Shown here piece by piece: positions 1 through 30,336 of a DNA stretch of 64,000 nucleotides. Numbering within the stretch: the stretch's first letter is position 1; each line of letters begins with the position of its first letter. Under the pieces are notes generated by a model. It searched no databases. It was not told the origin of the DNA and saw only the letters and a list, made by a program, of their open reading frames with translations. Origin of the DNA: an uncultured delta proteobacterium (GTDB taxonomy: Bacteria > Desulfobacterota > Syntrophobacteria > BM002). The stretch is from contig CAVQGX010000007.1 of NCBI GenBank assembly GCA_963712115.1, forward strand, positions 1-64,000. Direction: 5' to 3'. A program made the position numbers and the translations under genes.

Positions 1-729
1 AGTAAATTCACGATAATCTCGGCCCAAATAGGCTCGTTTAACATCGTGATCCTCCAAAAGTTCGGCTGCGCTTCCCTGGAGGATAATCCTGCCTGTCTCG
101 AGGACGTATCCTCTGTCGGCGATCTTCAAAGCAGCCCTGGCGTTTTGCTCCACAACAAGAATGGTCAAGCCCTCGTGGCGCAACCTCGATATGGTGTGAA
201 AGATGTCAACGACCAATCTTGGAGCCAAGCCCATTGAGGGCTCATCCAATAAAAGAAGCTTGGGACGCGACATGAGCGCCCGACCGATGGCCAGCATCTG
301 CTGCTCCCCACCGGAAAGAGTGCCGGATATTTGGTTCGACCTTTCTGAAAGAACCGGAAATAGGGAAAAAACCATGTTCAAATCTTGCTTAATGGAACTT
401 CTCTCCCTCCTGCCGAACCGCAGGTAGGCACCCAACTCCAGATTTTCCAGTACCGTTAGAGGTTGGAAAATCTGTCTGCCCTCAGGAATCTGACAGATGC
501 CCAGACGAACTATCGCTTCCGGTGGCTGGCCGTTTATCCTCTGACCCTGAAAGAGGATCTCTCCCTCCCGGGATGGGATTAAACTGGAGATGCAGTTGAG
601 CATTGTACTCTTGCCGGCACCATTTGCGCCGATGAGAGTAACAATCTCACCTGGTTTCACCGAGAGAGAAACATTGTCCAGAACCCGGATCCTGCCGTAG
701 AAGGTCTGTAGATTACGAATTTTAAGCAA
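1..729 (-). CDS. livF: Branched-chain-amino-acid-type ABC transporter ATPase (LivF); 3' end runs off the window
   Basis: Translated by hand (absent from ORF track): TTG start overlapping the livG stop, [22 protein letters not shown]...GANGAGKST (Walker A), ending ...VKRAYLGRDYREFT with no stop in the window. Confidence 0.9.
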   Translation of the reverse strand, partial: MLKIRNLQTFYGRIRVLDNVSLSVKPGEIVTLIGANGAGKSTMLNCISSLIPSREGEILFQGQRINGQPPEAIVRLGICQIPEGRQIFQPLTVLENLELGAYLRFGRRERSSIKQDLNMVFSLFPVLSERSNQISGTLSGGEQQMLAIGRALMSRPKLLLLDEPSMGLAPRLVVDIFHTISRLRHEGLTILVVEQNARAALKIADRGYVLETGRIILQGSAAELLEDHDVKRAYLGRDYREFT

Positions 730-1510
730 CCGGTTCTTCCCCTAAATAGGCGTCAATAACTGCTTGATTCTGCTGGATCTCCCTCGGACTGCCTTCCGCC
801 AGGGTGCGCCCATAGTCCATTACTAGGATCTCGTCGCACACTTCCATGGTTAGGCTCATGTCGTGTTCTACCAAAACTACGGTAATTCCCCGATCCCGAA
901 TCCGGCAGATCAATTGTCCCAGCTCGCGGGTTTCTGCCGCGTTGAGCCCGGAAGCGGGCTCGTCCAGCAATAACAGAAGGGGGTCGGTGGCAAGGGCCCT
1001 ACCGATCTCTAGTATCCTCTGAAGCCCGAAGGGCAAAACAGAACTGGGGCTGCCGGCCCGCTCCCCCAGGCCAATAAAGTTCAGCATCTCCAAACCATCT
1101 TGCCTGATGCACCCCTCCTCCTTCCGGTGGCGTGACAAGCGCAGAGCGGCGCCGATGAATCCGGCACTGGTCCTTGGGTGTCGACCCACCATGATATTTT
1201 CCAGCACGGTCATCCGGTCAAAAAGCTCCACGTTTTGAAATGTCCGGGCAATGCCGAGTTCAGCCACCTGGTGTGGTCCCAGGCCATTTAGCTTGTGACC
1301 ATTGAAGTATATAGCGCCGTCGTCAGTGGGATAAAAACCCGTGATAAGGTTAAACAAGGTGGTTTTGCCGGCACCGTTGGGACCTATAATGCCTTTTATC
1401 TGTCCCTTGCAAACCTCAAAACTGACCTGGCGGACAGCATGAATACCGCCAAAAGACTTGGAAACATTTTCTGCTTTCAGAAGAGGTATTGTCGTCGCCT
1501 CTGCCTTCAC
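722..1510 (-). CDS. livG: ABC transporter ATPase (LivG)
   Basis: [34 protein letters not shown] motifs. Confidence 0.93.
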
Positions 1511-1594
1511 GGCTTTCTCCGATGACAGCCAAACTTCCAGTGAAAAACAGCGAGTAAGACCACAGGTGTAACTCCCTCTTGCCTATCACCTGCC

Positions 1595-2578
1595 CTAAAC
1601 AGATTCCCCAGCGACTCCGCGGCGGAACCGGTATTTTTCCAGGAGATCCAAAGCACCTCGCGTCAGTCCCTGGGGCAAAAAGATCATAACCACCATGAGA
1701 ATGAGTCCAAAGATAACGATGTCGTAGTCGTGAAACACGGCCAGCACTTCCGGAAGTAAAGTAAGAGTAGCAGCGCCAAACACCGCCCCCCAAATGGATG
1801 CCATGCCGCCCACCACAACCATGGTAACCAACTTTATTGAGAACATGAAGTCAAAGGAACCAGGGCTGATGAAGGTGATGAAATGGGCATAGAGACTTCC
1901 TGCCACCGAGGCGTAGACAGCGCTTATGACAAATACCCAGATTTTCAGTCGTGAGGTATAAATACCCGAAGCACGGGCCGCTGATTCACTGTCGTGGATG
2001 GCGCGCAAGGCTCTTCCTACTCTAGAATCTACGATATTGAGGCTCACAGCTAAAGCTGCAAGTGTAGTAAACCACACCAGGTAGTAATAGCTTGCCGGCT
2101 CATCAAGAATTATGGATCCTATGGCAAGTGCAGGGATGCCAACCAAACCTGAAGGACCGCCGGTAAGGTAGTTGAATTCCTTGAAACAAATGTGAACAAT
2201 TATGCCGAAGCCGAGGGTGGCCATGGCAAGGTAGTAGCCGGTAAGCTTTAGGGCGGGAATGCCCACCACCAAGGCTACTACCGCTGTGAGGGCAACAGCC
2301 GCCACCATGGCCGGCCAGGGTGACACATGGTAAGTAGCAGTTAGAATGCCGGAAGTGTAAGCTCCAAGCCCAAAAAAAGCAGCGTGACCGAGACTGATCT
2401 GACCGGCATATCCCATCAATAGGTTTAGCCCTACAACCAACAGAGTGTGGATGCCGATAAAGATCATCACGTTAAGGTAGTAGCGGTTCGTCAGCACCAA
2501 AGGCAGAAGAGCCAGAACCAGCCCGAAGGTACCCACCTGAAACCATTTATATTTAAGTAACCGGATCAATGTTCTCAC
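1595..2578 (-). CDS. livM: ABC transporter permease (LivM)
   Basis: GYAGQISLGHAAFFGLGAY, YLAMATLGFG, TGGPSGL motifs; multi-TM. Confidence 0.93.
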   Translation of the reverse strand: MRTLIRLLKYKWFQVGTFGLVLALLPLVLTNRYYLNVMIFIGIHTLLVVGLNLLMGYAGQISLGHAAFFGLGAYTSGILTATYHVSPWPAMVAAVALTAVVALVVGIPALKLTGYYLAMATLGFGIIVHICFKEFNYLTGGPSGLVGIPALAIGSIILDEPASYYYLVWFTTLAALAVSLNIVDSRVGRALRAIHDSESAARASGIYTSRLKIWVFVISAVYASVAGSLYAHFITFISPGSFDFMFSIKLVTMVVVGGMASIWGAVFGAATLTLLPEVLAVFHDYDIVIFGLILMVVMIFLPQGLTRGALDLLEKYRFRRGVAGESV

Positions 2579-2589
2579 TCCAATATTGC

Positions 2590-2812
2590 AAGGAGCCAGT
2601 AGTCAGAATCCAGGAGTCAGCTGACAGCAGACAGCTCGCAGCATGCAGCAATGATTCTATATAGAGGATACCTGTTTTCTGCCAGTTGACAGCTGCAATC
2701 TACCTGCTGTCTTTTGTCCTCTATCTTCTGCCCGCTGCCAGCTGTAAGCTGCTAGCTGTATTTCCCTATGCTCCTATGCCCTATGCCCTATGCCCTGTGC
2801 CTTGTGCCCTTT
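2590..2812. repeat. Heptamer-periodic palindromic intergenic repeat cluster
   Basis: Purine-rich arm GAGTCAG/GACAGCA-like units, pyrimidine-rich arm CTGCCAG/CTGCTAG units, then (CTATGCC)n at about 2765-2810. Confidence 0.75.
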
Positions 2813-2818
2813 TCATTA

Positions 2819-3703
2819 TCAGAACTTCTTAACTTGCTTCGGCCCCAGCAGACCGCTGGGTCGAAGGAAGAGCACCAGGAGCAGCACGAAAAATGCTATG
2901 GCATCCTTGAATCCAGAGCTGATCAGGCCAGCACCCAGAGCCTCCAATACCCCTAGCAGAAAACCGCCGAGGATGGACCCAGGGCTGCTTCCCAGGCCAC
3001 CCAATACAGCGGCGCAAAAACCTTTAAGACCGAGCATAGTTCCCACGTCATAGCCGCACAAGGTGATGGGAACAATAACGATGCCTGCGGCCGCCCCAAT
3101 AGCGGCGCTCAAAGCGAAGGAGACCGAAACCATACGGTTCACACTTATACCCACTAAACTTGCCGCCCGTCGATTGAAGGCGCAAGCGCGCATAGCCTTC
3201 CCCGTTATTGTGCGTTTATAAAAGAACTGAAGGGACGCCGTCACCACCATGGTCACTCCCAATACCCAAAGGCTTTGCGGAACCAGGGTGGCACCACCAA
3301 GGTGGATTGGATCGGAACCGGTAAAGGGTTTAAGCCCCAGCGCATCTTTCCCCCAGAGCATCATGGCCATGCCGCGAAGAAAAATCGAAGCGCCTACGGT
3401 AATAATGATTAGGGTTATGGGATTAGAACTCCTGGCTGGACGGATGGTAAAGCGTTCCAATACGACCCCCACCAGGGTCACAGACAGAACTGCCAGGATA
3501 AAACTCAAACCGAGGGGCAAAAGACCAATACTGTTCAGGGCGATAACCGCCATGCCGCCCAGCATGACAAATTCACCCTGGGCAAAGTTGATCACCTCAG
3601 TGGAATTATAGATGATGGTAAAACCCAGAGCGATAACCGCGTAAATGGCACCGATGGTAATACCGGAAATTATATACTGGAGAATCTGGACGCTTAGATC
3701 CAT
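2819..3703 (-). CDS. livH: ABC transporter permease (LivH)
   Basis: GAIYAVIALGFTIIY, INFAQGEFVM, LGGLGS, RPSGLLG motifs. Confidence 0.93.
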   Translation of the reverse strand: MDLSVQILQYIISGITIGAIYAVIALGFTIIYNSTEVINFAQGEFVMLGGMAVIALNSIGLLPLGLSFILAVLSVTLVGVVLERFTIRPARSSNPITLIIITVGASIFLRGMAMMLWGKDALGLKPFTGSDPIHLGGATLVPQSLWVLGVTMVVTASLQFFYKRTITGKAMRACAFNRRAASLVGISVNRMVSVSFALSAAIGAAAGIVIVPITLCGYDVGTMLGLKGFCAAVLGGLGSSPGSILGGFLLGVLEALGAGLISSGFKDAIAFFVLLLVLFLRPSGLLGPKQVKKF

Positions 3704-3747
3704 AGTCGAATGCGAAATGTCTAAAATTTAGTAAAACTGGGCTCTTT

Positions 3748-3830
3748 CACCACAAAGAGCACGAAGACCACAAAGAAGCAAACAGTTTTAGATTGCTTGA
3801 ATCTTCGTGATCCTTCGTGCCCTTGGTGTC
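3748..3830. repeat. 9-mer-periodic palindromic element (CCACAAAGA type)
   Basis: CACCACAAAGAGCACGAAGACCACAAAG ... CTTCGTGATCCTTCGTGCCCTTGGTG; related copy at 56344-56422. Confidence 0.8.
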
Positions 3831-3842
3831 TTAAAATAACCC

Positions 3843-5012
3843 CTACTGAATAATCTGCCAGTCGCCTTCCACGATTTTAACCATCACGAAGGCCTCATCT
3901 TTATTAAGGCCGTTATGATCTTGTGGGGAGAATCGAAATATGCCACTTATCCCCACATATCCATCGATTTTCTCGACTTCATCGCGAATTTTGGCCCGGT
4001 CATCCCCCGCTTTTTCGAGGGCTTGAGCAAGGATCTGCAAACCATCCCAGGCATAGCCACCAAAACCGGAAACCGCCACTTGGTATTTTGCCTCGTAGTC
4101 GGCAATGTACTTCTGCAGGACTTGCTTTTGAGGATCGGAATCAGCCAGATCTCCGGCCACGAGAATCTTGCCGGTGGGTAAAATGATGCCATTAGCTGCC
4201 TCACCCGCGAGCTCGATGAATTTTTTGGATGCAACACCATGGCTCTGATAAAGGGGAATCTTGATACCTAGCTGTCGCATGTTCTTGGCAATTACCGCGG
4301 GACCGGGGTTAGTCCCCCAACAAATGATCGCCTGTGGTTTCAAAGCCCTAATCTTAGTGAGCTGAGGGGTCATGTCTGTGTCTTGTGGCCCGAAACTTTC
4401 GTCAGCAACTATCTCATATCCATAGTCTGCTGATTGTTCGAGCAACTGCTGCCTACCGCTATCGCCAAAAGCATTGCTCACCGTCAGGATGGCAATTTTC
4501 TTAACACCCTGGCCCTTGATATAGTTATAGATTTTGGCCACCGCCATCACATCGGTTTGCGGTGTTTTGAAGACCCAGCTTTTCACCGGAGTGGTGATTT
4601 TAACTGAAGCTGCACAAGAAATTAGTGGCACCTGCGCTTTTTCCACTATCGGTATCACCGCCAGGGTTGTGCCACTCCTGGAGGGACCCACAATGGCCAA
4701 GACATTATCTTTCTCGATGAGTTTGTTGGTATTGAGCACTGCTTTGGTAGCATCCCCTTCGGTATCGTAGATCACCAGCTCGATGGGATGCCCGTTGATG
4801 CCTCCGCCAGCGTTTATCTGCTCAGCAAGAAGTTCCATGGAGTTGCGCTCCGGCTCGCCCAAAAACGATGCTGGCCCGGTGATCGCAAAAATACCGCCGA
4901 TCTTGTAAGGAGCCTTGGGTTCTTCTTTTTTGGCGCAACTGCTACATATCAGAAATATTGCCAGCAGCATCACTGCCAAAATCAGCAACCTTTTCCTCTT
5001 ACCCTGTTTCAT
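3843..5012 (-). CDS. ABC transporter substrate-binding lipoprotein (LivK/LivJ-like, PBP type 1)
   Basis: Signal peptide with Cys, YKIGGIFAITGPASFLG, GGINGHPIELVIYD; ATG 5012 has a GGAGG RBS. Confidence 0.9.
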   Translation of the reverse strand: MKQGKRKRLLILAVMLLAIFLICSSCAKKEEPKAPYKIGGIFAITGPASFLGEPERNSMELLAEQINAGGGINGHPIELVIYDTEGDATKAVLNTNKLIEKDNVLAIVGPSRSGTTLAVIPIVEKAQVPLISCAASVKITTPVKSWVFKTPQTDVMAVAKIYNYIKGQGVKKIAILTVSNAFGDSGRQQLLEQSADYGYEIVADESFGPQDTDMTPQLTKIRALKPQAIICWGTNPGPAVIAKNMRQLGIKIPLYQSHGVASKKFIELAGEAANGIILPTGKILVAGDLADSDPQKQVLQKYIADYEAKYQVAVSGFGGYAWDGLQILAQALEKAGDDRAKIRDEVEKIDGYVGISGIFRFSPQDHNGLNKDEAFVMVKIVEGDWQIIQ

Positions 5013-5079
5013 TCTCCACCCTCCTTTTTCCCTCACCACTGATTATCGAACTTAGAACTAACCATCAGACTGGAGTTTG

Positions 5080-5266: not shown

Positions 5267-5698
5267 TTACATAGCATAGAGTTTCTCGCCCTTGATAACC
5301 GTAACTCCATTCCGCCTCAAAACCTCCACCGCACTGTCAGCGTTGTCAAAGCGGAAAATAAGCACCGCGTTTTGACCGCTTTGTTGGACAAATGCATACA
5401 TGTATTCAACATTAATCCCACCGTCGAAAAGAATTTGCAGAATGTTGTTCAGACCCCCGGGCCGGTCCTCCACCTCCACGGCTACGACCTCGGTTCTACC
5501 CACGGTGAAGCCATGTTCTTTGAGCACTTTCTTGGCTTTCTCGTGGTCGTTAACAATGAGCCGCAAGATGCCGAAATCAGAGGTGTCAGCCAAAGATAAA
5601 GCGCGGATGTTGATTTCGGCCTTCCCCAGAATTCCGGTAACCTCAGCAAGTCTTCCAGCCTTGTTCTCCAAGAATATGGAGATTTGCTCAACCTTCAT
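5267..5698 (-). CDS. Double ACT-domain amino-acid-binding protein
   Basis: [13 protein letters not shown]...DRPGGL...INVEYMYAF; this family is typically adjacent to paaK. Confidence 0.92.
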
Positions 5699-5884: not shown

Positions 5885-7186
5885 TTATATTTTTCTCTTG
5901 TCTATTACCCGGACAGCCTTGCCTTCAGTCCTTTGAATTGATTTAGGCTCTACCAGCCTGACCTTGGCAGCAACCCCCAGCAGTTCCTTGATATTCTTTT
6001 CTAAACTTCGTTCCATCGCCTGAAGGTTCTTGACTTCGTCAGAAAAAATCCTTTCATTTACCTCCACCATAACAGTGAGGGTGTCCAATCTTCCCTCCCT
6101 GTCTACTACCAACTGGTAGTGGGGCTCGATGCCATCAAACTCCATGATGACGCTCTCGATTTGGGAGGGGAAAACATTGATGCCGCGGATGATCAGCATG
6201 TCATCACTTCGGCCACGTACTCGCCCCATGCGCACCATGGTTCGACCACAACGGCAAGGCTCAGGATAAAGAATTGAAATGTCGCGAGTTCTGTAGCGAA
6301 TGACGGGGAAAGCCTCTTTGGTGATGGTGGTGAACACAAGCTCTCCCGGGGTGTTGTACGGCAAGACTTCTTCACTGTCTGGGTCGATAATTTCAGGAAT
6401 AAAATGGTCCTCAAAAATGTGCAAGCCATTTTGGGCTTCAATGCACTCTACGGAAACACCCGGTCCAATGATCTCACTGAGACCATAAATATCCATTGCT
6501 TTGAGGTTTAGCTTTTTCTCGATTTCATCTCTCATCTTCTCGGACCAGGGTTCAGCCCCAAAAATGCCGGCCTTGAAGTGGAGTTCGCGGAAATCAACAC
6601 CCATCTCCTCCGCCACTTCTGCAATCAACAGGGCGTAGGAGGGAGTGCAGGTCAAAATGGTGGGAGCAAAATCCTTCATTATCATCACTTGCCGCTTGGT
6701 ATTCCCGCCGGAGATGGGAATAACCGAAGCCCCCAGCTTTTCCGCTCCATAATGAAAACCAAGACCTCCAGTAAAGAGACCGTAACCATAGGCATTATGA
6801 ATCATGTCTCCTTTGGTGGCTCCCCCTGCCATGAGAGTTCGTGCCATGAGTTCAGACCAGGTCTGGATATCTCGAGCTGTGTAGCCCACAACGGTGGGCT
6901 TTCCGGTTGTGCCGGAAGAGGCATGGATTCGAACCACATTGTCCATGGGCACGGTAAACATGCCAAAGGGGTAGTTGTCACGCAGATTGTCTTTGTAGGT
7001 GAAAGGGAGTTTACGCAAATCATCGAGTGTGCGTATGTTATCTGGTTTGACCCCTGCCTCGTCGAAACGCTTCTTGTAAAATGGCACTGTGTTGTAAACT
7101 CTTGCAGCTACCGACTGCAGCCGCCTCAGTTGAATGGCCTCCAGAGCCTCCCTGGGCATGGTTTCAAACTCTTCGTTGTAGATCAT
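5885..7186 (-). CDS. paaK: Phenylacetate-CoA ligase
   Basis: [11 protein letters not shown]-loop, [36 protein letters not shown]. Confidence 0.93.
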
Positions 7187-7207
7187 TAGCCCTCCTTATC
7201 AACACCA

Positions 7208-7380
7208 ATATTGACGGCTTGGTAAAAAGTCCATCTGTCCGCCTCAGGCGGATTGCGCTTCATCTTTAGTCACTGCAGCGTACTTTTATGTACGCCTCAT
7301 TCCTAAAGCTTCGCGCGCCTTGCATCTGGCTCTTTTTACTGTGCCGTCTCATAAATGACTTTTTACGAATTCATCAATAT
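7208..7380. mobile_element. MITE-like long hairpin element with about 24-bp imperfect terminal inverted repeats
   Basis: Left end ATATTGACGGCTTGGTAAAAAGTC; right end GACTTTTTACGAATTCATCAATAT; apical GCGTAC-TTTTAT-GTACGCCTC; mini hairpin TCCGCCTCAGGCGGA at 7238-7252. Confidence 0.7.
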
Positions 7381-7434
7381 AGGCTTACCTGCTCCAATTT
7401 TTATCTGACCATCAAAGCCCGAGACTAAACCCCT

Positions 7435-8424
7435 TCAGAAGGAGAACCTCACAGACAAACTCAAAGCTGGTGCCCGAGGCTGATTTAAACTCTCCTGTTC
7501 GTAGGGGACAAGCCGCTGTTGTTGTCTCCTTTCTTCTCGATCATTGTATTTGTGAGCTACGTTTACCGCGCTATAAATGTTTCCACCGTAAAAGGCCGCA
7601 GTGACCACCGCCAATCCAACTCCCACTCCCTGGTGGTCCTGATTAAAGGCCTCGTAAGTGGCAAAAGCAAAAGCACCGGTGAACACTAACGCTATGGTTC
7701 CGTCTCGAGGTCGCTGGCAATAAAAGTGTCCTGCCCCAGGTAAAATCGCTGCTAGGAAGCCTGCCAGAGCAGGATCTTTTCGTTTTGCTTGTGATTCTTC
7801 TGCCACGATCTTCTGCACTTCCATGGCTGCCCCGTATAGGGTGTCGCCGCTCCCCACCTGTCGCAGAGCTTCGTCGGCTTCCAACCACCGGCCGTCTTTG
7901 GCATAACTAAGGCCAATGAGATACCAGGCCTCTGACTCCAATAGTCTACCTGGACGATCTGCAATAATGGACCGATACTCCTCTCTGGCCTTTTCGCCTC
8001 TTCCCATCTCACTGAAGGAGCGAGCTTTAAGGAAACGGGTCTCCCATTTCAATGAACTCATGGGATACCCACGTAGAAAAGAGTCTGCCGCCTCCACTGC
8101 TTGTTGCCAGCGTTTGCCTCGAAAGTAGCACTGGACAATCCGAAGGGCAGCATTCGCTGCTTGGAAATCATCGGGGTAGAGAAAGAGAAAGCGCTCATAC
8201 TCGCCAATAGCACGGAAATATTCTTGCTGGGAAAAAAGGTAATTGGCAAATTCCAGTACCTGCTGGGCAGAGAGGTCAACGGCAGATTTTGTCCCCTGGG
8301 CCTCAGCAGAAGTTCCCAAGGCCAAAATAAGAGTGAATATAATGGCTACTAAGAACGAGCGGGGGAAGATAGCAACAGATGTCGCAGGCTGTGTAAGCGC
8401 TTTATCCATGACTTGTCGTGGCAT
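7435..8424 (-). CDS. Exported TPR protein with C-terminal TM2-like membrane domain
   Basis: Signal peptide, TPR-like helices (YFRAIGEYERFL), KDPALAGFLAAILPGAGHFY motif. Confidence 0.8.
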   Translation of the reverse strand: MPRQVMDKALTQPATSVAIFPRSFLVAIIFTLILALGTSAEAQGTKSAVDLSAQQVLEFANYLFSQQEYFRAIGEYERFLFLYPDDFQAANAALRIVQCYFRGKRWQQAVEAADSFLRGYPMSSLKWETRFLKARSFSEMGRGEKAREEYRSIIADRPGRLLESEAWYLIGLSYAKDGRWLEADEALRQVGSGDTLYGAAMEVQKIVAEESQAKRKDPALAGFLAAILPGAGHFYCQRPRDGTIALVFTGAFAFATYEAFNQDHQGVGVGLAVVTAAFYGGNIYSAVNVAHKYNDREERRQQQRLVPYEQESLNQPRAPALSLSVRFSF

Positions 8425-8455
8425 CTCGAGATTACGAAACCTGGCCGTTTAACTT

Positions 8456-8489
8456 AAAAAGCCGTGGAATCCGCCTAACCCACGGCTTT
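8456..8489 (-). terminator. Second (distal) attenuator terminator of the Phe leader
   Basis: Minus strand AAAGCCGTGG-loop-CCACGGCTTTTT. Confidence 0.8.
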
Positions 8490-8494
8490 GAAAT

Positions 8495-8533
8495 AAAAAG
8501 CCATGGGCTCACTTCCCTGTCCGCCCATGGCTT
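8495..8533 (-). terminator. First attenuator terminator of the Phe leader
   Basis: Minus strand AAGCCATGGGC-loop-GCCCATGGCTTTTTATTT. Confidence 0.8.
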
Positions 8534-8555
8534 AGATGCTCACCTCTATACCGGC

Positions 8556-8636
8556 TTACCTCTTCAACCAAAGGGCAGACTTCTTAAAAAAGAAGCCGCC
8601 GGAGGGAAAGTTAATCTGAAAGCCGGCAAACTGCAT
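8556..8636 (-). CDS. Phe-rich attenuator leader peptide MQFAGFQINFPSGGFFFKKSALWLKR
   Basis: 26 codons, 6 Phe including FFF; GAGGA RBS; followed by two terminators. Confidence 0.8.
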   Translation of the reverse strand: MQFAGFQINFPSGGFFFKKSALWLKR

Positions 8637-8662
8637 AGATTCCTCAGTTCCTATGGAGCGTC

Positions 8663-8691
8663 AAATTATATAAGTATTGAATACTTGTCAA
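8663..8691 (-). promoter_or_regulatory. sigma70-type promoter for the Phe leader
   Basis: TTGACA (8691-8686), then TATAAT at 15 nt or TAATTT at 17 nt. Confidence 0.6.
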
Positions 8692-8710
8692 GTTATTTCT
8701 TGATCTTGTA

Positions 8711-9427
8711 TTAACCTCCTTCTGCAGGTTTTTCCGCCTGCCGCCACCGCCTGAGCTTTATTCTAATCCACTCGCCAAAGAGAGGAGCCGGACTTTCATT
8801 GAGATAGTTGTCGTAGTGAACCATTGCCTTAGTTTTGTCGCCCATGGCCTCGTACACCCTGCCGAGGTAAAGCTGCACCTGAGCTTGGTATACCGGAGCT
8901 CCCTCCTTAGCAAGGAGCTGGTAAATCTTTAAGGCATCCTCATACGACCCCTTGGCCTCATAAGTCTCACCCAGACTGACTAAGACCCGATCGTGGAGGG
9001 GATGGGTGCGATCGGTTCGCTGAAGAAAATCATTGTAACAGAGAATAGTCTTATCGTATGTTCCTTGCTCGAAATAGATGTTTCCGAGATCTACAAGTGC
9101 AGTGGTGGCCACAGTGGTTGAGCCATAACGCTTCTGTACCTCCTCCAGGGCAGCTGTGGCTTGACCATATTCTGTCAGGTTATTCCCACCTGTCGATCCG
9201 GTAGGATACAGGGCTAGGGCTTTCTGGTAAAGATCGGAGGCTTTTGCTTCACGGCTGGCCTTAAAGACAAAAACTGCTCCCACGATTACAAGGAAAAGAG
9301 CTACTCCTGCCGCTACTCCCGTCATAATCTTTATGTTTTCGCTACACCAGTTTATGACTTTAGCACTAAAAGTTATGAATTCGTCTGGTTTCTTGATTTC
9401 TTTTCTCTTTATTTTTCTTTTTGCCAA
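8711..9427 (-). CDS. Membrane-anchored TPR protein (YfgM-like)
   Basis: RKEIKKPDEFITF N-terminus, one TM segment, TPR repeats. Confidence 0.8.
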   Translation of the reverse strand: MAKRKIKRKEIKKPDEFITFSAKVINWCSENIKIMTGVAAGVALFLVIVGAVFVFKASREAKASDLYQKALALYPTGSTGGNNLTEYGQATAALEEVQKRYGSTTVATTALVDLGNIYFEQGTYDKTILCYNDFLQRTDRTHPLHDRVLVSLGETYEAKGSYEDALKIYQLLAKEGAPVYQAQVQLYLGRVYEAMGDKTKAMVHYDNYLNESPAPLFGEWIRIKLRRWRQAEKPAEGG

Positions 9428-9467
9428 ATTTTCTTCTCCTGATCAGGTTTTTTTTCTGGGCAGTGAC

Positions 9468-9605
9468 GATTTCAGATTTTAGATCTCACTTTAACCTTAT
9501 TAGTTTCTCCATCTTCAGAAAAATCTGCAATCTCCAATCTCAAATCTGCAATGACCCTCCCTCCATTACTCCAGCTTTTTCCTGTCCGCTGTCCGCTGCC
9601 TGCTG
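9468..9605. repeat. Heptamer/octamer periodic palindromic repeats
   Basis: GATTTCA-GATTTTA arm versus AATCTGC-AATCTCC-AATCTCA arm; also CTCCATTACTCCA and CTGTCCG units. Confidence 0.65.
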
Positions 9606-10268
9606 CTAGCTGCTCATCCTTTTTGCCTCTCTCAGGATTGCACCACCCACTAAATTGACCAGAGCCCAGATAACATCCAGGGGGAAATGTTCCTCAATGG
9701 AGGAGTCAAAAGTAACCACCAACCGTGCAGGAAACTCTTCATCCTCAAGCCAGAAAATATAGCCAAGGGGAATCTTGGGTAGAGGCCAGAGGCGAAAGGA
9801 TACATCTCCAAAATCAGTCTGGCCACCTCCAAGTCGCAGGCCTATTTCCTTAAATGTTTGAGCATCTCGACCGAATTTTTCTTCCAACGGCCGGGTGAAG
9901 AGAACGTGAGGACCCCTGAAAAAAAAGTCACCACCCTTGATTTCGCCACCGGTCACCATCCGGCCTGTGAGCCCAATCGGCCGGCTGTGAATCAGGTAGG
10001 TCAACAACACCAGATAAAATTGAAAAGAGAGCTTTTGTGGACCGTCATGATCGAGACACTCAATCAACCTTTTATCAGGGTAACACCCGAAGGACTGATG
10101 CAAGAAAGGAATCTGGTAGCAGCCGCGCCCCTGATCATATCTCACAGCGGCACGACCGCACACTTCACTCACATCCATGGACGAAAGCTCGCTCCAGAGA
10201 TTGGGATCGATTTCGCCAGGATCCTCATAAATACCCCGCCCTTTTTTACTCAAATCGCTTTCGCTCAT
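9606..10268 (-). CDS. DUF3786-like protein
   Basis: GGDFFFRGPH, LPKIPL, DEEFPAR, LDVIWAL motifs. Confidence 0.75.
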   Translation of the reverse strand: MSESDLSKKGRGIYEDPGEIDPNLWSELSSMDVSEVCGRAAVRYDQGRGCYQIPFLHQSFGCYPDKRLIECLDHDGPQKLSFQFYLVLLTYLIHSRPIGLTGRMVTGGEIKGGDFFFRGPHVLFTRPLEEKFGRDAQTFKEIGLRLGGGQTDFGDVSFRLWPLPKIPLGYIFWLEDEEFPARLVVTFDSSIEEHFPLDVIWALVNLVGGAILREAKRMSS

Positions 10269-19876: not shown

Positions 19877-20205
19877 TTTTTTTTCCTTGCAGGAGATTCA
19901 CCCTCGCCAGTCACCAGGCGTGACTGAATATCCCGAGAAGCGGCGAGGATTTCGCCGAAAATCTTCTTCACTGCACCCCAGGCCAGGGGACCTTGGTTCT
20001 GGCTTGCCAGCCTCCGAAATATTGCTTGTTCCCTGTTTAAGTCCATGGCATCCCTGCCCGCCTTGTTTTTGAGCGCAGCAATCTCCTCAACCAAGAGCAT
20101 GCGTTGGTTAAGCAACCGGAGAATTTGATTGTCCAAATCATCTATGTCCTGTCGCAATTGCTGTAGATCAGACCTATCTTTCTTGATCTCATTCATTTTT
20201 CCCAA
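19873..20205 (-). CDS. Stand-alone AroQ chorismate mutase
   Basis: LRQDIDDLDNQILRLLNQR...K...RE...SRDIQ; no prephenate dehydratase domain. Confidence 0.9.
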   Translation of the reverse strand: MGKMNEIKKDRSDLQQLRQDIDDLDNQILRLLNQRMLLVEEIAALKNKAGRDAMDLNREQAIFRRLASQNQGPLAWGAVKKIFGEILAASRDIQSRLVTGEGESPARKKN

Positions 20206-21185
20206 ATGGTCTCCTCTACTTTGTGACCAAAGTGGCGTCCGGCGGACTCCAGAGCAACGAGCACCTCGCTCCCCCTTTCCAAAGAAACCACAGAACGGGG
20301 CTCGCCATCCGGTGCAGTGAGCCGGATAGTTTCGGCATTCTGCACCAAGGTGGAGATTTCTCCTGCCTCGGTCTCTGCTGTAACCAGCAATAGGGGGCGC
20401 CGCTCTATTTTCATTCGACCTACTATAACTTCATAAGCGAGCCCTCGATGATCTACGCACAAAACTGGATCCCCAGCCATCAATTCTGAAAGGTAGCGGG
20501 TCTTACCTCCGGGTACCCTAATGTAGGCATGAACCGGACCTGCATTCACCCTAAAGGGGCGTGGAGCTACATAGGGATTTTCCACACTTTCAGCGTGGAT
20601 GAGAAAGAGCCCGCCACTACTATTGCCCACGAGCATACCCTGACCCTGATCCATTTGGGTGCAGGTATCCACACAGGCACGATCTCCTAAACCTGCCTGA
20701 CGCACGGTAATTATTCGCCCAGTGCTAAGCTGGATCTGCTCACCTTGCTCACGAACCACGGCAAGGGTTTTCTTTAGTTCTAAAGGATCAAGAGTCTCAA
20801 TCAATATTCCGGCAACCCCTCGTTCTAGAACAGAGAGAGCATTCCTGGCTTCCTCACTGTTGGTCACCACCGTGAAAATATTGTCCGCCTGAGCCACCAG
20901 ATTCTCAAGGGGTATTATCGTCCAGTCCGTAGTGCGCACCACTACCGTAGCACTATGGGCCAGCTTGAGGATCTCCTTTTCATCATCCTGGTTCTTGACT
21001 TCATAGAATACAACTTCTTGGTCGAGCTTTAGATCGCCATCAGGGGCAATGGTGGCTATCCGTCCCAGTTCTTTTACTTTCTGATGGTATCCCTCCGGAA
21101 CCATGACGGCTGCAGCTCCTCCCTCAAGAGCAGTTGTCACCAGCGACTTGTTCCAGGGATCCACCTTTACCCAAGCTACTTTCAT
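20193..21185 (-). CDS. aroB': 3-dehydroquinate synthase II (archaeal-type AroB')
   Basis: [43 protein letters not shown]. Confidence 0.93.
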
Positions 21186-22018
21186 CCCGTTAATTTTCTC
21201 CTCTCAGATTCCAAAAGATCACTTTTGAGAAAAGCCAAGGCTTCTTCCACCGTGGCATTCTCATGAACTATCATGCTAATCGCCCCCACCATCCTTGTGG
21301 GGTCAGCATGCTGAAATATGTTCCGACCTATAGAAACGCCTTTGCCGCCGGCATCCATAGCCCCCCTCACAACTTGAAGGATCTCTTTGTCCGACTCCAT
21401 TTTTTCACCACCGGCGATGACCACCGGAACCGGACACCCAAGTACCACTTCCCGGAAGGATTCCACACTGCCGCTGTAAGATATCTTGACCAGGTCAGCA
21501 CCAAGCTCTGCTCCGAGCCGAGCAGCATGCTTCAGCACTTTAGGGTCGTACTCATTGTCTATCTTCTCACCACGAGGATAGATCATTGCCAATAGAGGCA
21601 TTCCCCATTCCCGGGCCCGGCGAGAAACCATGCCAAAATCACTTAGCATCTGTCGTTCCATTTCATCGCCAATGTTCACATGTATGGATACCGCATCGGC
21701 ACCCAAGCACAGAGCCTCTTCAACCGTGCAAATCATGGTCTTGGTGTTGGGATAGGGGGAAAGGGAAGTACTGGCAGACAGATGAATGATTAGGCCAACG
21801 TCTTTGCCACTCCGGCGATGACCTGCACCGACCATTCCCTTATGTTCCACAATGGCATTTGCTCCGCCCCTGACAACGTTATCAATTGCATCTCTCAAAT
21901 CTATGATGCCAGCGATCGGACCAGAGCTAACCCCGTGATCCATGGGGACAATGACAGTTTTGCTGGTATTCCGGTCAATTATCCGTTCCATCCTAATGTG
22001 TTTACCTATCATGTGCAA
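21182..22018 (-). CDS. aroA': 2-amino-3,7-dideoxy-D-threo-hept-6-ulosonate synthase (AroA', DhnA-type aldolase)
   Basis: [30 protein letters not shown]; directly upstream of DHQS II. Confidence 0.9.
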
Positions 22019-22147: not shown

Positions 22148-22182
22148 ATAAAAAAGCCGCGGCTCGGGACTGCCGCGGCTTT
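22148..22182 (-). terminator. Attenuator terminator of the aro leader
   Basis: Minus strand AAAGCCGCGGC-AGTCCCGA-GCCGCGGCTTTTTTATT. Confidence 0.85.
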
Positions 22183-22207
22183 CGGAACATACTCAGCAAC
22201 TATCGGG

Positions 22208-22288
22208 TCAGCATGCGCGCACAGCTCCCTCTATCGCCACCATGGCGTAATAATAATAGCAAAAAAATGGGGAGGGCCGTCGCTTCAT
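22208..22288 (-). CDS. Phe/Tyr-rich leader peptide MKRRPSPFFCYYYYAMVAIEGAVRAC
   Basis: 26 codons; AAGGGA RBS; FF and YYYY run; terminator follows; upstream of aroA'. Confidence 0.82.
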   Translation of the reverse strand: MKRRPSPFFCYYYYAMVAIEGAVRAC

Positions 22289-28629: not shown

Positions 28630-30120
28630 TCACACTAAGCCATTGTTGGCCATCTCCAAAGCTCTAACCAGTGCTTCACCTTTGGCCACCGTCTCTTCAT
28701 ATTCAGACTGGGGAACTGAGTCGGCCACAATTCCTGCGCCCACCTGAAGGTAAACCTTACCGTTGCGCACCAGCATTGTTCGAATGGTGATGCAAAAGTC
28801 CATATTACCGGAGAATGAAAAATATCCCACTGCCCCGGCGTACAGTCCACGGCGGCTGGGCTCTAGTTCATCAATTATTTCCATTGCCCGAACCTTGGGA
28901 GCACCAGAAACGGTACCAGCTGGAAAAGAGGCGCGAAGGACATCAAACATATCTAGCCCAGGCGCTAAATCCCCTTCCACATGAGAGACCAAGTGCATTA
29001 CATGGGAGTAGTACTCCACCACCATCAGGTCGGTCACCTCCACTGTGCCAACAGTCGCCACTCGGCCAACATCGTTGCGGCCCAGATCCACAAGCATCAC
29101 ATGTTCAGCCCGTTCCTTTGGGTCAGCTAGCAATTCTTCCTCCAGCCGGCGATCCTCACTACTATTTTTTCCCCTGGGTCGAGTCCCGGCGATGGGTCGC
29201 AGAGCCACTCTTCCGTTTTCCAACCGCACCAAGACCTCGGGTGAGGCACCGATAACTACATCTCCGTCAAAATCAAGGTAATACATATAAGGCGATGGAT
29301 TTATCCGCCTAAGGGCCCGATAGATGTCAAATGGTTCAGAAATGAGATCAGTTTCAAAACGCTGACTGAGTACCACCTGTATAGCCTCGCCGTCTTGAAT
29401 GTATTGTTTTGCCCTCTTGACCATTCCCTCGAACCGATCCCGCTCCATGTTCACTCGCAGCACCAGCTCCTGCTTGGACTTTCCTATCGGCTTTGAAGGG
29501 GGCACAGGCTCCCTAAGTAATCTTAGAGTCTCATCTATTTGAGCGACGGCCTGATCATAAGCGGCAGCATGGTTGACGTATTCGGGCACATAGATGTTTG
29601 CCACCACCTTGATGGTTTGCGTCAAGTTGTCGTAGATCATTACTTGCTCAGGCATCATGAAGGCCGCATCCGGCATGCCAACCTCATCTGGTTTAAAGGT
29701 GGGCAGGTGTTCAATGAAACGAACGATGTCATAGCTCAAGTAACCAACCAGGCCACCAAAAAACCTGGGCAGACCCTCCACGGGTACAGCCCGGAAGGTT
29801 TGCATAAGATTCTTCAGGTAGTTGAGGGGCGATGCTTTGAATTTTCCGCATTGCTCGCCATTTCGAGTTAGTTCAATGTGATCACCACGAGCCTTGACCA
29901 ACAGCCTGGGGCGATGACCAATGAAGCTGTAGCGACCCCAGCGTTCTCCTCCCTCTACACTTTCCAACAAGAATGATTCCGACCCTTTGGCAACCTTTTT
30001 AAATAGACTTATAGGCGTATCAGTGTCTGCGGTGACTTCTCGGAAAACAGGAATGATATTGCCTTGCCGAGCCAAACTGAGGAATTCGTCCTTACTCGGG
30101 TGGTACACGGTAACCTCCAT
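28630..30120 (-). CDS. trpE: Anthranilate synthase component I
   Basis: LLESVEGGERWGRYSF, NPSPYM, AEHVMLVDLGRND, FPAGTVSGAPK. Confidence 0.96.
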   Translation of the reverse strand: MEVTVYHPSKDEFLSLARQGNIIPVFREVTADTDTPISLFKKVAKGSESFLLESVEGGERWGRYSFIGHRPRLLVKARGDHIELTRNGEQCGKFKASPLNYLKNLMQTFRAVPVEGLPRFFGGLVGYLSYDIVRFIEHLPTFKPDEVGMPDAAFMMPEQVMIYDNLTQTIKVVANIYVPEYVNHAAAYDQAVAQIDETLRLLREPVPPSKPIGKSKQELVLRVNMERDRFEGMVKRAKQYIQDGEAIQVVLSQRFETDLISEPFDIYRALRRINPSPYMYYLDFDGDVVIGASPEVLVRLENGRVALRPIAGTRPRGKNSSEDRRLEEELLADPKERAEHVMLVDLGRNDVGRVATVGTVEVTDLMVVEYYSHVMHLVSHVEGDLAPGLDMFDVLRASFPAGTVSGAPKVRAMEIIDELEPSRRGLYAGAVGYFSFSGNMDFCITIRTMLVRNGKVYLQVGAGIVADSVPQSEYEETVAKGEALVRALEMANNGLV

Positions 30121-30145: not shown

Positions 30146-30182
30146 AAAAAAGGCCGTGAGGATTTTCAGCTCCCACGGCCTT
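30146..30182 (-). terminator. Second terminator of the trp leader
   Basis: Minus strand AAGGCCGTG-loop-CACGGCCTTTTTT. Confidence 0.8.
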
Positions 30183-30192
30183 CAATAAAAAG

Positions 30193-30227
30193 AAAAAGCC
30201 GTGGGCAAGGAGTTTACCCACGGCTTT
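30193..30227 (-). terminator. First attenuator terminator of the trp leader
   Basis: Minus strand AAAGCCGTGGG-loop-CCCACGGCTTTTT; its 5' side GTGGGTAAACTCC can alternatively pair with leader GGAGTTTATCCAC. Confidence 0.85.
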
Positions 30228-30243
30228 GAAGTACTATTGGCTT

Positions 30244-30336
30244 CTACTCACCTGGCAGTGGATAAACTCCTACACAGACGTACCACCACCAGTACCAGTT
30301 GACGAGATTTTTCTGTCTATTTAGGTTTTTCTTCAT
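30244..30336 (-). CDS. trpL: trp operon leader peptide MKKNLNRQKNLVNWYWWWYVCVGVYPLPGE
   Basis: 30 codons with WYWWWY; AAGGA RBS; promoter TTGACA-18-TAAAGT at 30385-30356. Confidence 0.9.
   Translation of the reverse strand: MKKNLNRQKNLVNWYWWWYVCVGVYPLPGE

Follow-up and report, generated by a model that had tools for sequence, protein, structure and literature searches.

The leader element and the genes downstream

The window (the whole stretch of 64,000 nucleotides that was analysed) carries on its minus strand a gene for a TPR lipoprotein, followed by genes for a PaaK-like aryl-acetate CoA ligase, a protein with a pair of ACT domains and an ABC importer (Table 1). Upstream of the lipoprotein gene lies a leader region, which the preliminary description of this DNA had credited with a promoter, a ribosome-binding site, a 26-aa ORF with six Phe residues including FFF, and two U-tailed hairpins; all of these are found on the minus strand at the coordinates given there, and the content of the downstream genes was confirmed by Pfam and NCBIfam. 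The importer had been named livKHMGF. ABC import genes are indeed present, but the branched-chain type is not favoured: the binding protein matches CouP-type aromatic-acid binders with E values of 1e-45 to 1e-40, against 1e-13 to 1e-11 for LivJ/LivK. Judged by this likeness, the transporter more probably imports aromatic acids than branched-chain amino acids. The ligase scores 640.0 bits against the PaaK equivalog TIGR02155, just below the cut-off of 646.3, and is not counted a member of that family. Neither an indolepyruvate/phenylpyruvate oxidoreductase nor a prephenate dehydratase is encoded in the window. The TPR lipoprotein has no known link to phenylalanine.

Table 1. Leader features, downstream genes and sister leaders in the window
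Feature	Coordinates	Strand	Evidence and remarks
-35 hexamer TTGACA	8686..8691	minus	sequence; TTGACA in 10/11 aligned copies, CTGACA in L018
-10 hexamer TATAAT	8665..8670	minus	sequence; 15-nt spacer to -35
Shine-Dalgarno core GAGG	8642..8645	minus	sequence; 5 nt 5' of ATG at 8636
Leader ORF MQFAGFQINFPSGGFFFKKSALWLKR	8556..8636	minus	ORF listing; 26 codons + TAA, 6 Phe including FFF
Regulatory Phe codons 15-17 (TTC TTT TTT)	8586..8594	minus	sequence and folds; top of hairpin 1:2
Hairpin 1:2 (anti-antiterminator) GGCGGCTTCTT / AAGAAGTCTGCC	8574..8600	minus	folds; consensus helix 5, 99.1% paired
Region 2, antiterminator 5' strand GTCTGCCCTTTGGTT, common to hairpin 1:2	8566..8580	minus	helix 1, 96.4% paired, 11 sequences
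Region 3, antiterminator 3' strand AGCCATGGGCGGAC (T1 5' arm + first loop bases GGAC)	8519..8532	minus	
Terminator T1 (3:4)	8489..8533	minus	repeat search; helix 6, 99.0% paired
Terminator T2 (5:6)	8456..8489	minus	repeat search; helix 7, 99.2% paired
First gene, TPR (BamD/YbgF-like) lipoprotein, TM2-like C-terminus	7435..8424	minus	Pfam, NCBIfam, homologues
PaaK-like aryl-acetate CoA ligase	5885..7186	minus	Pfam; 87-94% identical in relatives
ACT-domain-pair protein	5267..5698	minus	PF19571; PDB 2f06, E 1.7e-31
ABC importer	1..5039	minus	Pfam; runs off window
Importer parts	binding protein 3843-5039; permeases 2819-3703, 1595-2578; ATPases 722-1510, 1-729	minus	
Phe/Tyr leader element	22150..22288	minus	ORF 22288..22208 MKRRPSPFFCYYYYAMVAIEGAVRAC (FFCYYYY); terminator 22183-22150; before aro-tyrA operon
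Trp leader element	30146..30336	minus	ORF 30336..30244 MKKNLNRQKNLVNWYWWWYVCVGVYPLPGE (WYWWW); tandem terminators 30227-30146; trpE ~30 nt on

The leader has, close to its promoter, a short ORF equipped with a ribosome-binding site and start codon, and within it a cluster of codons for a single amino acid. Among the 11 aligned copies (see below), the -10 hexamer reads TATAAT in eight and AATAAT, TATAGC or TATAGA in the remaining three, and the promoter spacer is 15 nt in ten and 16 nt in L006. A consensus scan did not return this promoter because it needs a spacer of 16-18 nt. The Shine-Dalgarno core stands 5 nt from the ATG in the window, L001 and L002 and about 11-15 nt from it in seven further copies; no motif of the GAGG type was found before the ORF of L016. 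An operator-like palindrome in the promoter spacer, AGTATTCAATACT, was considered and rejected, being kept in the closest relatives only.

The TPR gene begins 28-43 nt after T2, and with only 28 nt between the T2 tail and the TPR ORF in the window there is little room for a promoter of its own. Further along, several operon genes of the window are 139-240 nt apart. The spacer between the TPR gene and paaK measures 248 nt, of which about 165 are inserted bases absent from L001 and L002; it is 40-86 nt in 13 of the 17 loci in which it was compared, the window counted among them (40 nt in L011, L013 and L015, 77-86 nt in ten others). A scan of the coding strand gave no convincing intrinsic terminator between the operon genes. 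A separate paaK promoter in 7187-7434, which the preliminary description had named among the findings that would count against it, did not turn up there as a 10-of-12 site.

Alternative folds of the leader RNA

After the leader ORF, and before the first structural gene, come two intrinsic terminators. T1 is a perfect stem of 11 bp (arms 8533-8523 and 8508-8498) with a 14-nt loop, followed by TTTTTATTT; T2 is a perfect stem of 10 bp (arms 8489-8480 and 8467-8458) with a 12-nt loop, followed by TTTTT. A terminator scan found a sub-stem of T1 only, because it allows loops of 8 nt at most and those here measure 14 and 12 nt. The pairing of GTCTGCCCTTTGGTT with AGCCATGGGCGGAC that had been claimed does exist, as 8 + 5 pairs around a small internal loop (helix 2:3), and is kept in relatives. 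The folds are mutually exclusive: the segment GUCCGCC is common to 1:2 and 2:3, and GGGCGG to 2:3 and T1. The T1 loop bases GGAC, which the terminator does not need but which form part of 2:3, are kept in 10 of 11 copies. Moreover, the T2 5' arm can base-pair with the T1 3' arm, and this 4:5 helix is 99.0% paired across copies. The classical attenuator topology 1:2 / 2:3 / 3:4 is therefore present and conserved, with the Phe codons held in hairpin 1:2 and a 2:3 antiterminator that excludes the terminator, the latter supported by invariance.

The two states differ in the kind of support they receive from the alignment. In the OFF fold (1:2, T1, T2 and the enclosing helices), 97.6% of 550 alignment cells are paired, and five pairs show compensatory changes, a covariation score reached by none of 500 shuffles. 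In the ON fold (2:3 + 4:5), 97.5% of 239 cells are paired, against 36-46% with slid partners; 2:3 and 4:5 have no compensatory pairs, and their observed pairing was reached by 377 of 500 shuffles, so that what supports them is invariance and not covariation. In L001, L017 and L006 the outer pairs of 2:3 are weakened by changes in region 2. The T2 5' arm, which has two possible partners, is invariant in all 11 copies; at pairs 202:219, 203:218 and 205:216 the changes all fall on the T2 3' arm, which has one. The 4:5 pairing arises automatically, however, because both terminators share their stem sequence, and selection for it is not required.

With a ribosome footprint of 28 nt, a ribosome holding F15 in the A site leaves region 2 free, one at F16 covers 2-3 of its bases and one at F17 most of them; a ribosome at the leader stop codon covers region 2. 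Equilibrium folding with such a footprint masked was carried out for 10 indexed copies, L017 being left out. For the RNA through T1 and free of ribosomes, nine of the ten prefer the terminator fold, by 4.5-14.3 kcal/mol. With the ribosome stalled at F15 in the window, the gap is still +4.5 kcal/mol in favour of the terminator, and at full length under a stall the ON state is favoured in only four of ten copies. This negative outcome is weakly informative because the same test fails to flip the Trp and aro leaders of the window, whose terminators stay whichever codon is in the A site.

Two further candidate pairings were noted by eye. That of 5' CCAGAGG with CCUCUGG of region 2 is perfect in six copies and has a central mismatch in the window, L001 and L002; UUUCCCU (codons 10-12) can pair with AGGGAAG in the T1 loop, with one compensatory change in L007 and one break in L002.

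Conservation among relatives

The leader unit occupies the spacer between two TPR genes in a gene order, DUF3786-TPR1-[leader]-TPR2-paaK-ACT-liv, that is conserved across relatives. It is present in 11 of the 17 related Syntrophobacterales-type loci where this spacer is visible; ten of these copies are complete and that of L008 ends at a contig end. The expectation that a Phe-rich uORF would recur in relatives was borne out, an ATG-started in-frame ORF with 5-6 Phe codons being found in 10 of the 11 aligned copies, of which nine end at the same TAA; the other two frames of the same span hold 1-4 Phe (+1) and 0-2 Phe (+2). FFF is intact in 8 of 11 copies, reads FSF in L017 and FLF in L016, and is lost in L018. 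In L013 and L015, F3 and F6 are lost and F8 and F12 gained, the total still being six; the N-terminal half of L016 differs and is two codons longer, in frame, with five Phe. A stop directly follows FFF in L001. L018 keeps the RNA but has no ATG, VSS at the position of FFF, and a stop out of frame. The other residues of the ORF vary freely, and synonymous sites such as those of GGC GGC TTC are invariant. From the aligned sequences, this is the substitution pattern to be expected for a leader peptide, where the RNA matters and not the protein.

Six of the 17 relatives lack the uORF and its promoter. They retain T1 + T2 (L004, L012), part of T1 with T2 (L003), T2 only (L005, L010) or a remnant (L011). 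In all six, TPR2 and paaK are full-length, with paaK 89-90% identical, and the ACT gene, together with the liv genes in three, is present as far as the contigs reach. Since these relatives retain the operon genes, the operon can be kept, and is presumably expressed, without the leader. No second copy of the element was found by nhmmer in the window plus 43 loci (485,890 nt), a search that matched only cut-down remnants and the terminators of the Trp leader.

Sister leaders in the window

The window contains 558 ATG-started ORFs of 10-45 aa, of which exactly three contain FFF, YYY or WWW. All three are intergenic, run on the coding strand and have U-tailed hairpins behind them, and the genes that come next are trpEGDCFBA, an aro-tyrA operon and the TPR-paaK operon (Table 1). 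In shuffled windows a run of FFF, YYY or WWW appears 1.5 +/- 1.2 times per window; WWW alone averages 0.08 and YYYY 0.02. A small ORF with FFF somewhere in 64 kb is thus not rare on its own; it is the position of the leader, its conservation and the two sister leaders that carry it beyond chance. No Rfam 15 family matched anywhere in the window at gathering scores, and hence none matched the three leaders. A permissive search of 7000-10000 (E <= 10) returned no match to RF01859 (Phe_leader) or to any other Rfam leader family, only four chance matches to eukaryotic lncRNA and snoRNA models, so the element cannot be placed in RF01859.

Discussion

Enterobacterial Phe leaders, pheL before pheA and pheM before pheST, sense charged tRNA-Phe through ribosome stalling. 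The element described here resembles them: near the promoter there is a short ORF with successive Phe codons, then an intrinsic terminator, and the 5' arm of that terminator has an alternative partner just past the regulatory codons. It differs in its lineage (Desulfobacterota of the Syntrophobacterales type), in its two tandem terminators, in its longer ORF, where Phe takes 6 of 26 codons, and in its genes, which specify a TPR protein, a PaaK-like ligase, an ACT protein and an ABC importer and not prephenate dehydratase or Phe-tRNA synthetase. Attenuators of the trpL type, including the Trp leader of the window, share the 1:2 / 2:3 / 3:4 design. In our own reading of its sequence, the Trp leader has a 13-bp antiterminator joining codons 23-26 to the 5' arm and loop of the first terminator; as in the Phe leader, its terminators come in tandem and share GCCGTGGG stems, and its first gene follows the second terminator by about 30 nt. 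Here, however, Phe codons replace Trp codons and the cargo is not a recognised biosynthetic operon. The conserved topology and the two window leaders of the same design support the classical attenuator reading put forward in the preliminary description, and we consider that the element, on its sequence features, probably senses charged tRNA-Phe by ribosome-mediated transcription attenuation at a leader peptide. Several observations speak against this: the uORF is absent from six relatives, the L018 copy has the RNA but no ORF, 2:3 and 4:5 show no compensatory changes, the ribosome geometry is tight, equilibrium energies favour the terminators, and the Shine-Dalgarno spacing is wide in seven copies.

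Transcription would start about 7 nt downstream of the -10 hexamer, and the leader RNA would form a long hairpin topped by 1:2, whose 5' side and loop hold Phe codons 15-17; GUCUGCCC and GGGCGGAC would be pairing partners within the leader in the switch proposed. When phenylalanine is plentiful, or the leader is not translated, 1:2 should form and leave region 3 to pair with region 4; T1 would then form, with T2 behind it, and transcription would end. When Phe-tRNA is scarce, the ribosome would stall at the first Phe codon of the run and cover region 1, so that region 2 may engage the T1 5' arm together with the first bases of the T1 loop; released in this way, the T1 3' arm could in turn pair with the 5' arm of T2, and neither terminator would form. 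RNA polymerase would enter the TPR gene 28 nt on and would most likely continue into paaK, the ACT gene and the genes of the aromatic-acid importer.

How far the switch reaches is the point at which another reading has to be weighed. The attenuator could be real and yet gate the TPR gene alone, or tune read-through from TPR1 only, with paaK-ACT-liv transcribed from a promoter of its own, in which case phenylalanine would not control the ligase and importer. The six leaderless relatives, with TPR2 and paaK intact and ACT and liv genes up to the limits of their contigs, can be read in this way, as can the long and partly inserted TPR2-paaK spacer of the window, the gaps of 139-240 nt between several operon genes and the lack of a Phe link for the first gene. 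The same spacer, however, is only 40 nt in three relatives and 77-86 nt in ten others, nothing like a terminator or a 10-of-12 promoter is seen in these spacers on the coding strand, and a Phe leader before a lone TPR lipoprotein would make little sense when both sister leaders precede their cognate pathways. We therefore regard control of the TPR gene alone as unlikely, if the most serious of the alternatives.

It is considerably less probable that the element is a free-standing gene for a small RNA, with a promoter of its own and a structured RNA of about 170-200 nt that ends in a double terminator and acts in trans or binds a protein, the ORF being a by-product of a U-rich hairpin loop. Conservation does run at the nucleotide level, synonymous sites included, the palindrome CTTCTT-TTTT-AAGAAG is what encodes FFFKK, L018 has the RNA without the ORF, the element is missing from six relatives whose neighbouring genes remain, and two strong terminators close it. 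What a small RNA gene leaves unexplained is the occurrence of small ORFs with aromatic runs in the same layout before the trp and aro-tyrA operons, the Phe count kept at 5-6 by substitutions that offset one another and an indel that preserves the frame, and a next gene that follows T2 by 28 nt, with no room for a promoter; nor was a second copy found in the 486 kb examined, or an Rfam match. That the 26-aa product is itself a functional micropeptide seems to us very improbable. An ATG-started ORF with the motifs GGFFF and SALWL does persist in 10 of 11 copies, but amino-acid replacements are as frequent as silent changes, the first position of codon 18 shows all four bases (T creating the stop that costs L001 nine residues), and neither a hydrophobic span nor a known motif is seen in the peptide.

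Under attenuation by Phe-tRNA supply, the mechanism would be one already known, acting on a target that does not appear in the literature searched. That literature on leader-peptide attenuation contains no Phe leader before a paaK-ACT-ABC operon, in line with the earlier statement that no description of the arrangement was known. Leader peptides are not mentioned in PMC545781. How a gene is regulated says much about what it does. Genes of this kind are routinely labelled phenylacetate catabolism and branched-chain transport, and a Phe switch before them argues for a role in feeding phenylalanine synthesis in anaerobes; placed ahead of ligase and importer genes that usually pass for catabolic, a Phe leader suggests that these genes supply phenylalanine when it is short.

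A biochemical setting is available. An aryl-acid route to the aromatic amino acids, through the indolepyruvate oxidoreductase pathway, is described for Methanococcus maripaludis (PMC4162585), and the conversion of phenylacetate to phenylalanine for rumen microbes and cultures (PMC7356843); in the accessible parts of these two papers, no regulatory link of a leader to such a route is described. The route would give a reason for placing an aryl-acetate CoA ligase and an aromatic-acid importer under control of Phe starvation, and the PaaK-like ligase, ACT pair and CouP-like importer fit it, although the oxidoreductase gene is absent from the window and the substrates of the ligase and transporter here are putative. 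The binding protein of the importer matches CouP of the CouPSTU system of Rhodopseudomonas palustris (4jb0, 3tx6/4f8j) with an E value of about 1e-42. The ligands of CouP are given as ferulate and coumarate in PMC3610893. CouPSTU serves the catabolism of lignin monomers; the ligand of the window importer is putatively an aromatic acid. We infer that the operon would bring in an aryl acid, for instance phenylacetate, and activate it on the way to phenylalanine.

The three leaders (Trp, Tyr/Phe, Phe) form a coherent set of probable leader-peptide attenuators in one Desulfobacterota-type genome. A wider scheme can be offered tentatively, as a possibility that we rate as doubtful: in this lineage each aromatic amino acid may have its own leader-peptide attenuator, the Phe branch being an aryl-acid salvage module and not a prephenate dehydratase operon. 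Phe starvation might then act through a relay over two terminators (2:3, then 4:5) to switch on a CouP-like importer, a PaaK-like ligase and an ACT-domain sensor, and phenylacetate would be taken up, activated and reductively carboxylated to phenylpyruvate, and so to phenylalanine. Were this scheme right, paaK-ACT-ABC clusters would have an anabolic role in anaerobes.

The preliminary description was silent on how the second terminator would be passed. We know of no description of tandem terminators whose arms re-pair in a chain. Both the Phe and the Trp attenuators have tandem terminators with arms able to do so, which suggests that one stall may disable two terminators. The tandem terminators of the two leaders carry the same stems, and of the 14 GCCRTGGG sites in the window, where 5.05 would be expected, six lie inside the Phe and Trp leaders.

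Conservation of the leader

The phenylalanine leader lies on the minus strand, where all the parts proposed in the preliminary description, namely promoter, ribosome-binding site, Phe-rich ORF of 26 codons and two U-tailed hairpins (the terminators T1 and T2), were located (see table). The promoter was missed by a consensus scan because the scan needs a spacer of 16–18 nt and that between its -35 and -10 boxes is 15 nt. A near-palindrome, AGTATTCAATACT (8672-8684, minus strand), fills the spacer; it is probably no operator, since it is imperfect in the related loci L001 and L002 and missing from the other copies. The leader RNA is predicted to fold with -79.8 kcal/mol and to be more stable than shuffles (z = -2.5).

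Coordinates of the leaders and associated genes in the window
Feature	Position	Strand	Basis or remark
-35 TTGACA	8691-8686	-	sequence
-10 TATAAT	8670-8665	-	sequence
GAGG	5 nt upstream of ATG at 8636	-	sequence
Phe leader ORF	8636..8556	-	product MQFAGFQINFPSGGFFFKKSALWLKR
T1, perfect inverted repeat + T run	8533-8523 / 8508-8498	-	repeat search
T2, perfect inverted repeat + T run	8489-8480 / 8467-8458	-	repeat search
TPR protein gene	ORF start 8424, 28 nt past T2 tail	-	Pfam
aro operon: ADH synthase, dehydroquinate synthase II, chorismate mutase, aroD, aroE, aroA, tyrA	22018 to 16146	-	Pfam annotation
Phe/Tyr leader ORF MKRRPSPFFCYYYYAMVAIEGAVRAC (2 Phe, 4 Tyr)	22288..22208	-	upstream of aro operon
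trpE-G-D-C-F-B-A operon	30120 to 23056	-	Pfam annotation
trpE	28630-30120	-	
Trp leader-peptide attenuator	30146-30336	-	ORF + tandem terminators
Trp leader ORF MKKNLNRQKNLVNWYWWWYVCVGVYPLPGE, 30 aa, includes WYWWW	30336..30244	-	upstream of trpE

A genome scan based on an alignment of TPR-protein homologues returned 43 loci, of which L001-L018 are orthologous (53–83% identity). The order DUF3786-TPR1-TPR2-paaK-ACT-livKHMGF, in which TPR1 and TPR2 are the TPR genes before and after the leader, is kept in every locus of sufficient length, and PaaK identity among the relatives is 87–94% (both by tblastn). Seventeen loci show the TPR1–TPR2 spacer (L014, which begins within the gene, is excluded), and the element is present in 11 of these, complete in 10 and cut by the contig end in L008. 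The leader ORF is missing from the other six: promoter and ORF are lost and both terminators retained in L004 and L012, T2 alone is retained in L005 and L010, L011 holds a remnant, and in L003 the 5' part, promoter and ORF included, is replaced by a small insertion with terminal inverted repeats (1900-2200). Small insertions of this kind also lie between T2 and the TPR gene in L006 (1230-1470; similar sequence at L012:1-115) and between a promoter/T-run remnant and the intact leader in L017 (6620-6712). In three of the six leaderless loci (L004, L005, L012) the outer base of the T2 5' arm is U in place of G (AGUCCGUGGG), which breaks a pair invariant in 11/11 leader-bearing copies and shortens T2.

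When the window copy was aligned with ten loci, an in-frame ATG was found in 10 copies and a common TAA stop in nine; L001 has TAG immediately 3' of FFF, and in L018 the start is absent, VSS replaces FFF and the stop is shifted. The Phe-rich ORF postulated earlier is conserved, in that each of ten ORFs contains 5–6 Phe, as against 1–4 and 0–2 in the other two frames over the same span. In L013 and L015 two Phe codons have gone (F3, F6) and two have appeared elsewhere (F8, F12), and L016, with a different N-terminal half 6 nt longer, retains 5 Phe. Outside these features the peptide changes at codon positions 1 and 2 as often as at position 3, and synonymous sites, for example in GGC GGC TTC, show zero changes across the alignment. 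Such a pattern is that of a leader peptide, with reading frame and regulatory codons conserved and with constraint on the RNA, not on the protein.

Alternative folds of the leader RNA

In the consensus structure (RNAalifold) a single long irregular hairpin encloses the ORF: GCCGGCUU (codons 4-6) pairs with AAGCCGGU, directly beyond the stop codon, and the top is formed by GGCGGCUUCUU and AAGAAGUCUGCC, with the FFF codons (F15-F17) in the 5' side and loop and T1 and T2 downstream. In this terminator (OFF) fold 97.6% of 550 alignment cells are paired; five pairs show compensatory changes, and its covariation score is reached by 0/500 shuffles. In the alternative (ON) fold, region 2 (8580-8566) pairs with the T1 5' arm and its loop bases GGAC, and the T1 3' arm with the T2 5' arm; the antiterminator pairing claimed for the T1 5' arm is thereby present as a conserved alternative, the whole ON fold being paired in 97.5% of 239 cells versus 36–46% with the partners slid. 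It has zero compensatory changes and shuffles attain an equal pairing value, so that what speaks for it is invariance. The loop bases GGAC are retained in 10/11 copies, and the T2 5' arm is invariant, all T2 changes falling on the 3' arm, which has one partner; at the level of comparative sequence this distribution is telling for the ON fold.

Ribosome stalling was modelled in ViennaRNA by masking a 28-nt footprint in ten usable copies (L017 was left out). With a stall at F15 the terminator fold loses part of its advantage in 9/10 copies, and at full length the ON state becomes the more stable one in 4/10; in the window the terminators are still favoured by 2.7–4.5 kcal/mol. With a stall at F17 the footprint covers region 2. 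The terminators of the window's Trp leader also stay in place under identical modelling, so that a kinetic switch cannot be judged from equilibrium folding.

The mechanism proposed here for the Phe leader is the one by which the pheA and pheST leaders of enterobacteria and the trp leaders work. Rfam gave no match at the Phe leader, which belongs to none of its leader families and differs from them in lineage, in target genes and in having tandem terminators able to re-pair in chain. We found no description of a Phe leader with a paaK-ACT-importer arrangement in the openly accessible literature searched.

Reach of control and function of the operon

The leader is followed, in the order first described, by the TPR gene, a PaaK-like ligase, an ACT-pair protein and five ABC-importer genes. 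Since TPR homologues are mostly 324 aa, the second ATG (8409) is the suggested start. The gap between T2 and the TPR gene leaves no room for a promoter, and leader control of this gene is likely. No good terminator or promoter site was found between the operon genes, and the TPR2–paaK spacer is 40–86 nt in 13/17 loci (window counted); the window's own is 248 nt (7187-7434, minus strand), including ~165 inserted bases absent from L001 and L002. This insert, flanked by a ~15-nt imperfect direct repeat (AAGCC..TATTGRTG), resembles a small insertion. Extension of leader control to paaK-ACT-liv is probable from this layout, if unproven. In the six leaderless relatives TPR2 and paaK are intact, as are the ACT and liv genes up to the contig ends, so that these relatives must have another way of expressing the genes.

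On the PaaK model the ligase reaches 640 bits, slightly below the cut-off of 646.3. Of the livKHMGF importer announced earlier, the five ABC-importer genes stand and the Liv-type identity probably does not: the "LivK" binding protein (3843-5039, minus strand) is far closer to CouP-type aromatic-acid binders (E 1e-45 to 1e-40) than to LivJ/LivK (1e-13 to 1e-11), and "branched-chain amino acid transporter" is therefore probably the wrong name. CouP binds ferulate and coumarate (PMC3610893). PMC4162585 cites a route from aryl acids to aromatic amino acids for M. maripaludis, and PMC7356843 cites Phe synthesis from phenylacetate for rumen cultures. A Phe-starvation switch on ligase and importer genes would fit phenylacetate salvage into Phe. 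Among the 71 ORFs scanned in the window we saw no oxidoreductase gene and no shikimate kinase, chorismate synthase or prephenate dehydratase domain; with oxidoreductase and prephenate dehydratase not found, the salvage pathway cannot be closed from the window.

Sister leaders of the aromatic operons

FFF, YYY or WWW occurs in exactly three of the window's 558 ATG-started ORFs of 10–45 aa, and these are the Phe, Trp and Phe/Tyr leaders (shuffled windows gave WWW 0.08 and YYYY 0.02 times per window). The Trp leader, with no match in Rfam, has two tandem U-tailed hairpins ending ~30 nt before trpE, and a 13-bp antiterminator between codons 23-26 and the 5' arm and loop of the first terminator. 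The Phe/Tyr leader (22150-22288, minus strand), ~130 nt upstream of the aro operon, has a strong terminator after its ORF. Both leader ORFs follow the design of the Phe one. Evidently, aromatic amino acids are under classical attenuation in this organism, with the element studied here as the Phe member. Terminator stems are common to the Phe and Trp leaders, which contain six of the 14 GCCRTGGG sites in the window (5.05 expected window-wide). A stretch of 15 nt, TTCAAAGCCGTGGGT, is identical between the second terminator of the Phe leader (8479-8493) and the first of the Trp leader (30217-30231), both on the minus strand; the two attenuators may share an ancestor or a common module. The aro operon starts (20193-22018, minus strand) with an archaeal-type pair, 2-amino-3,7-dideoxy-hept-6-ulosonate synthase and 3-dehydroquinate synthase II, replacing DAHP synthase and AroB.
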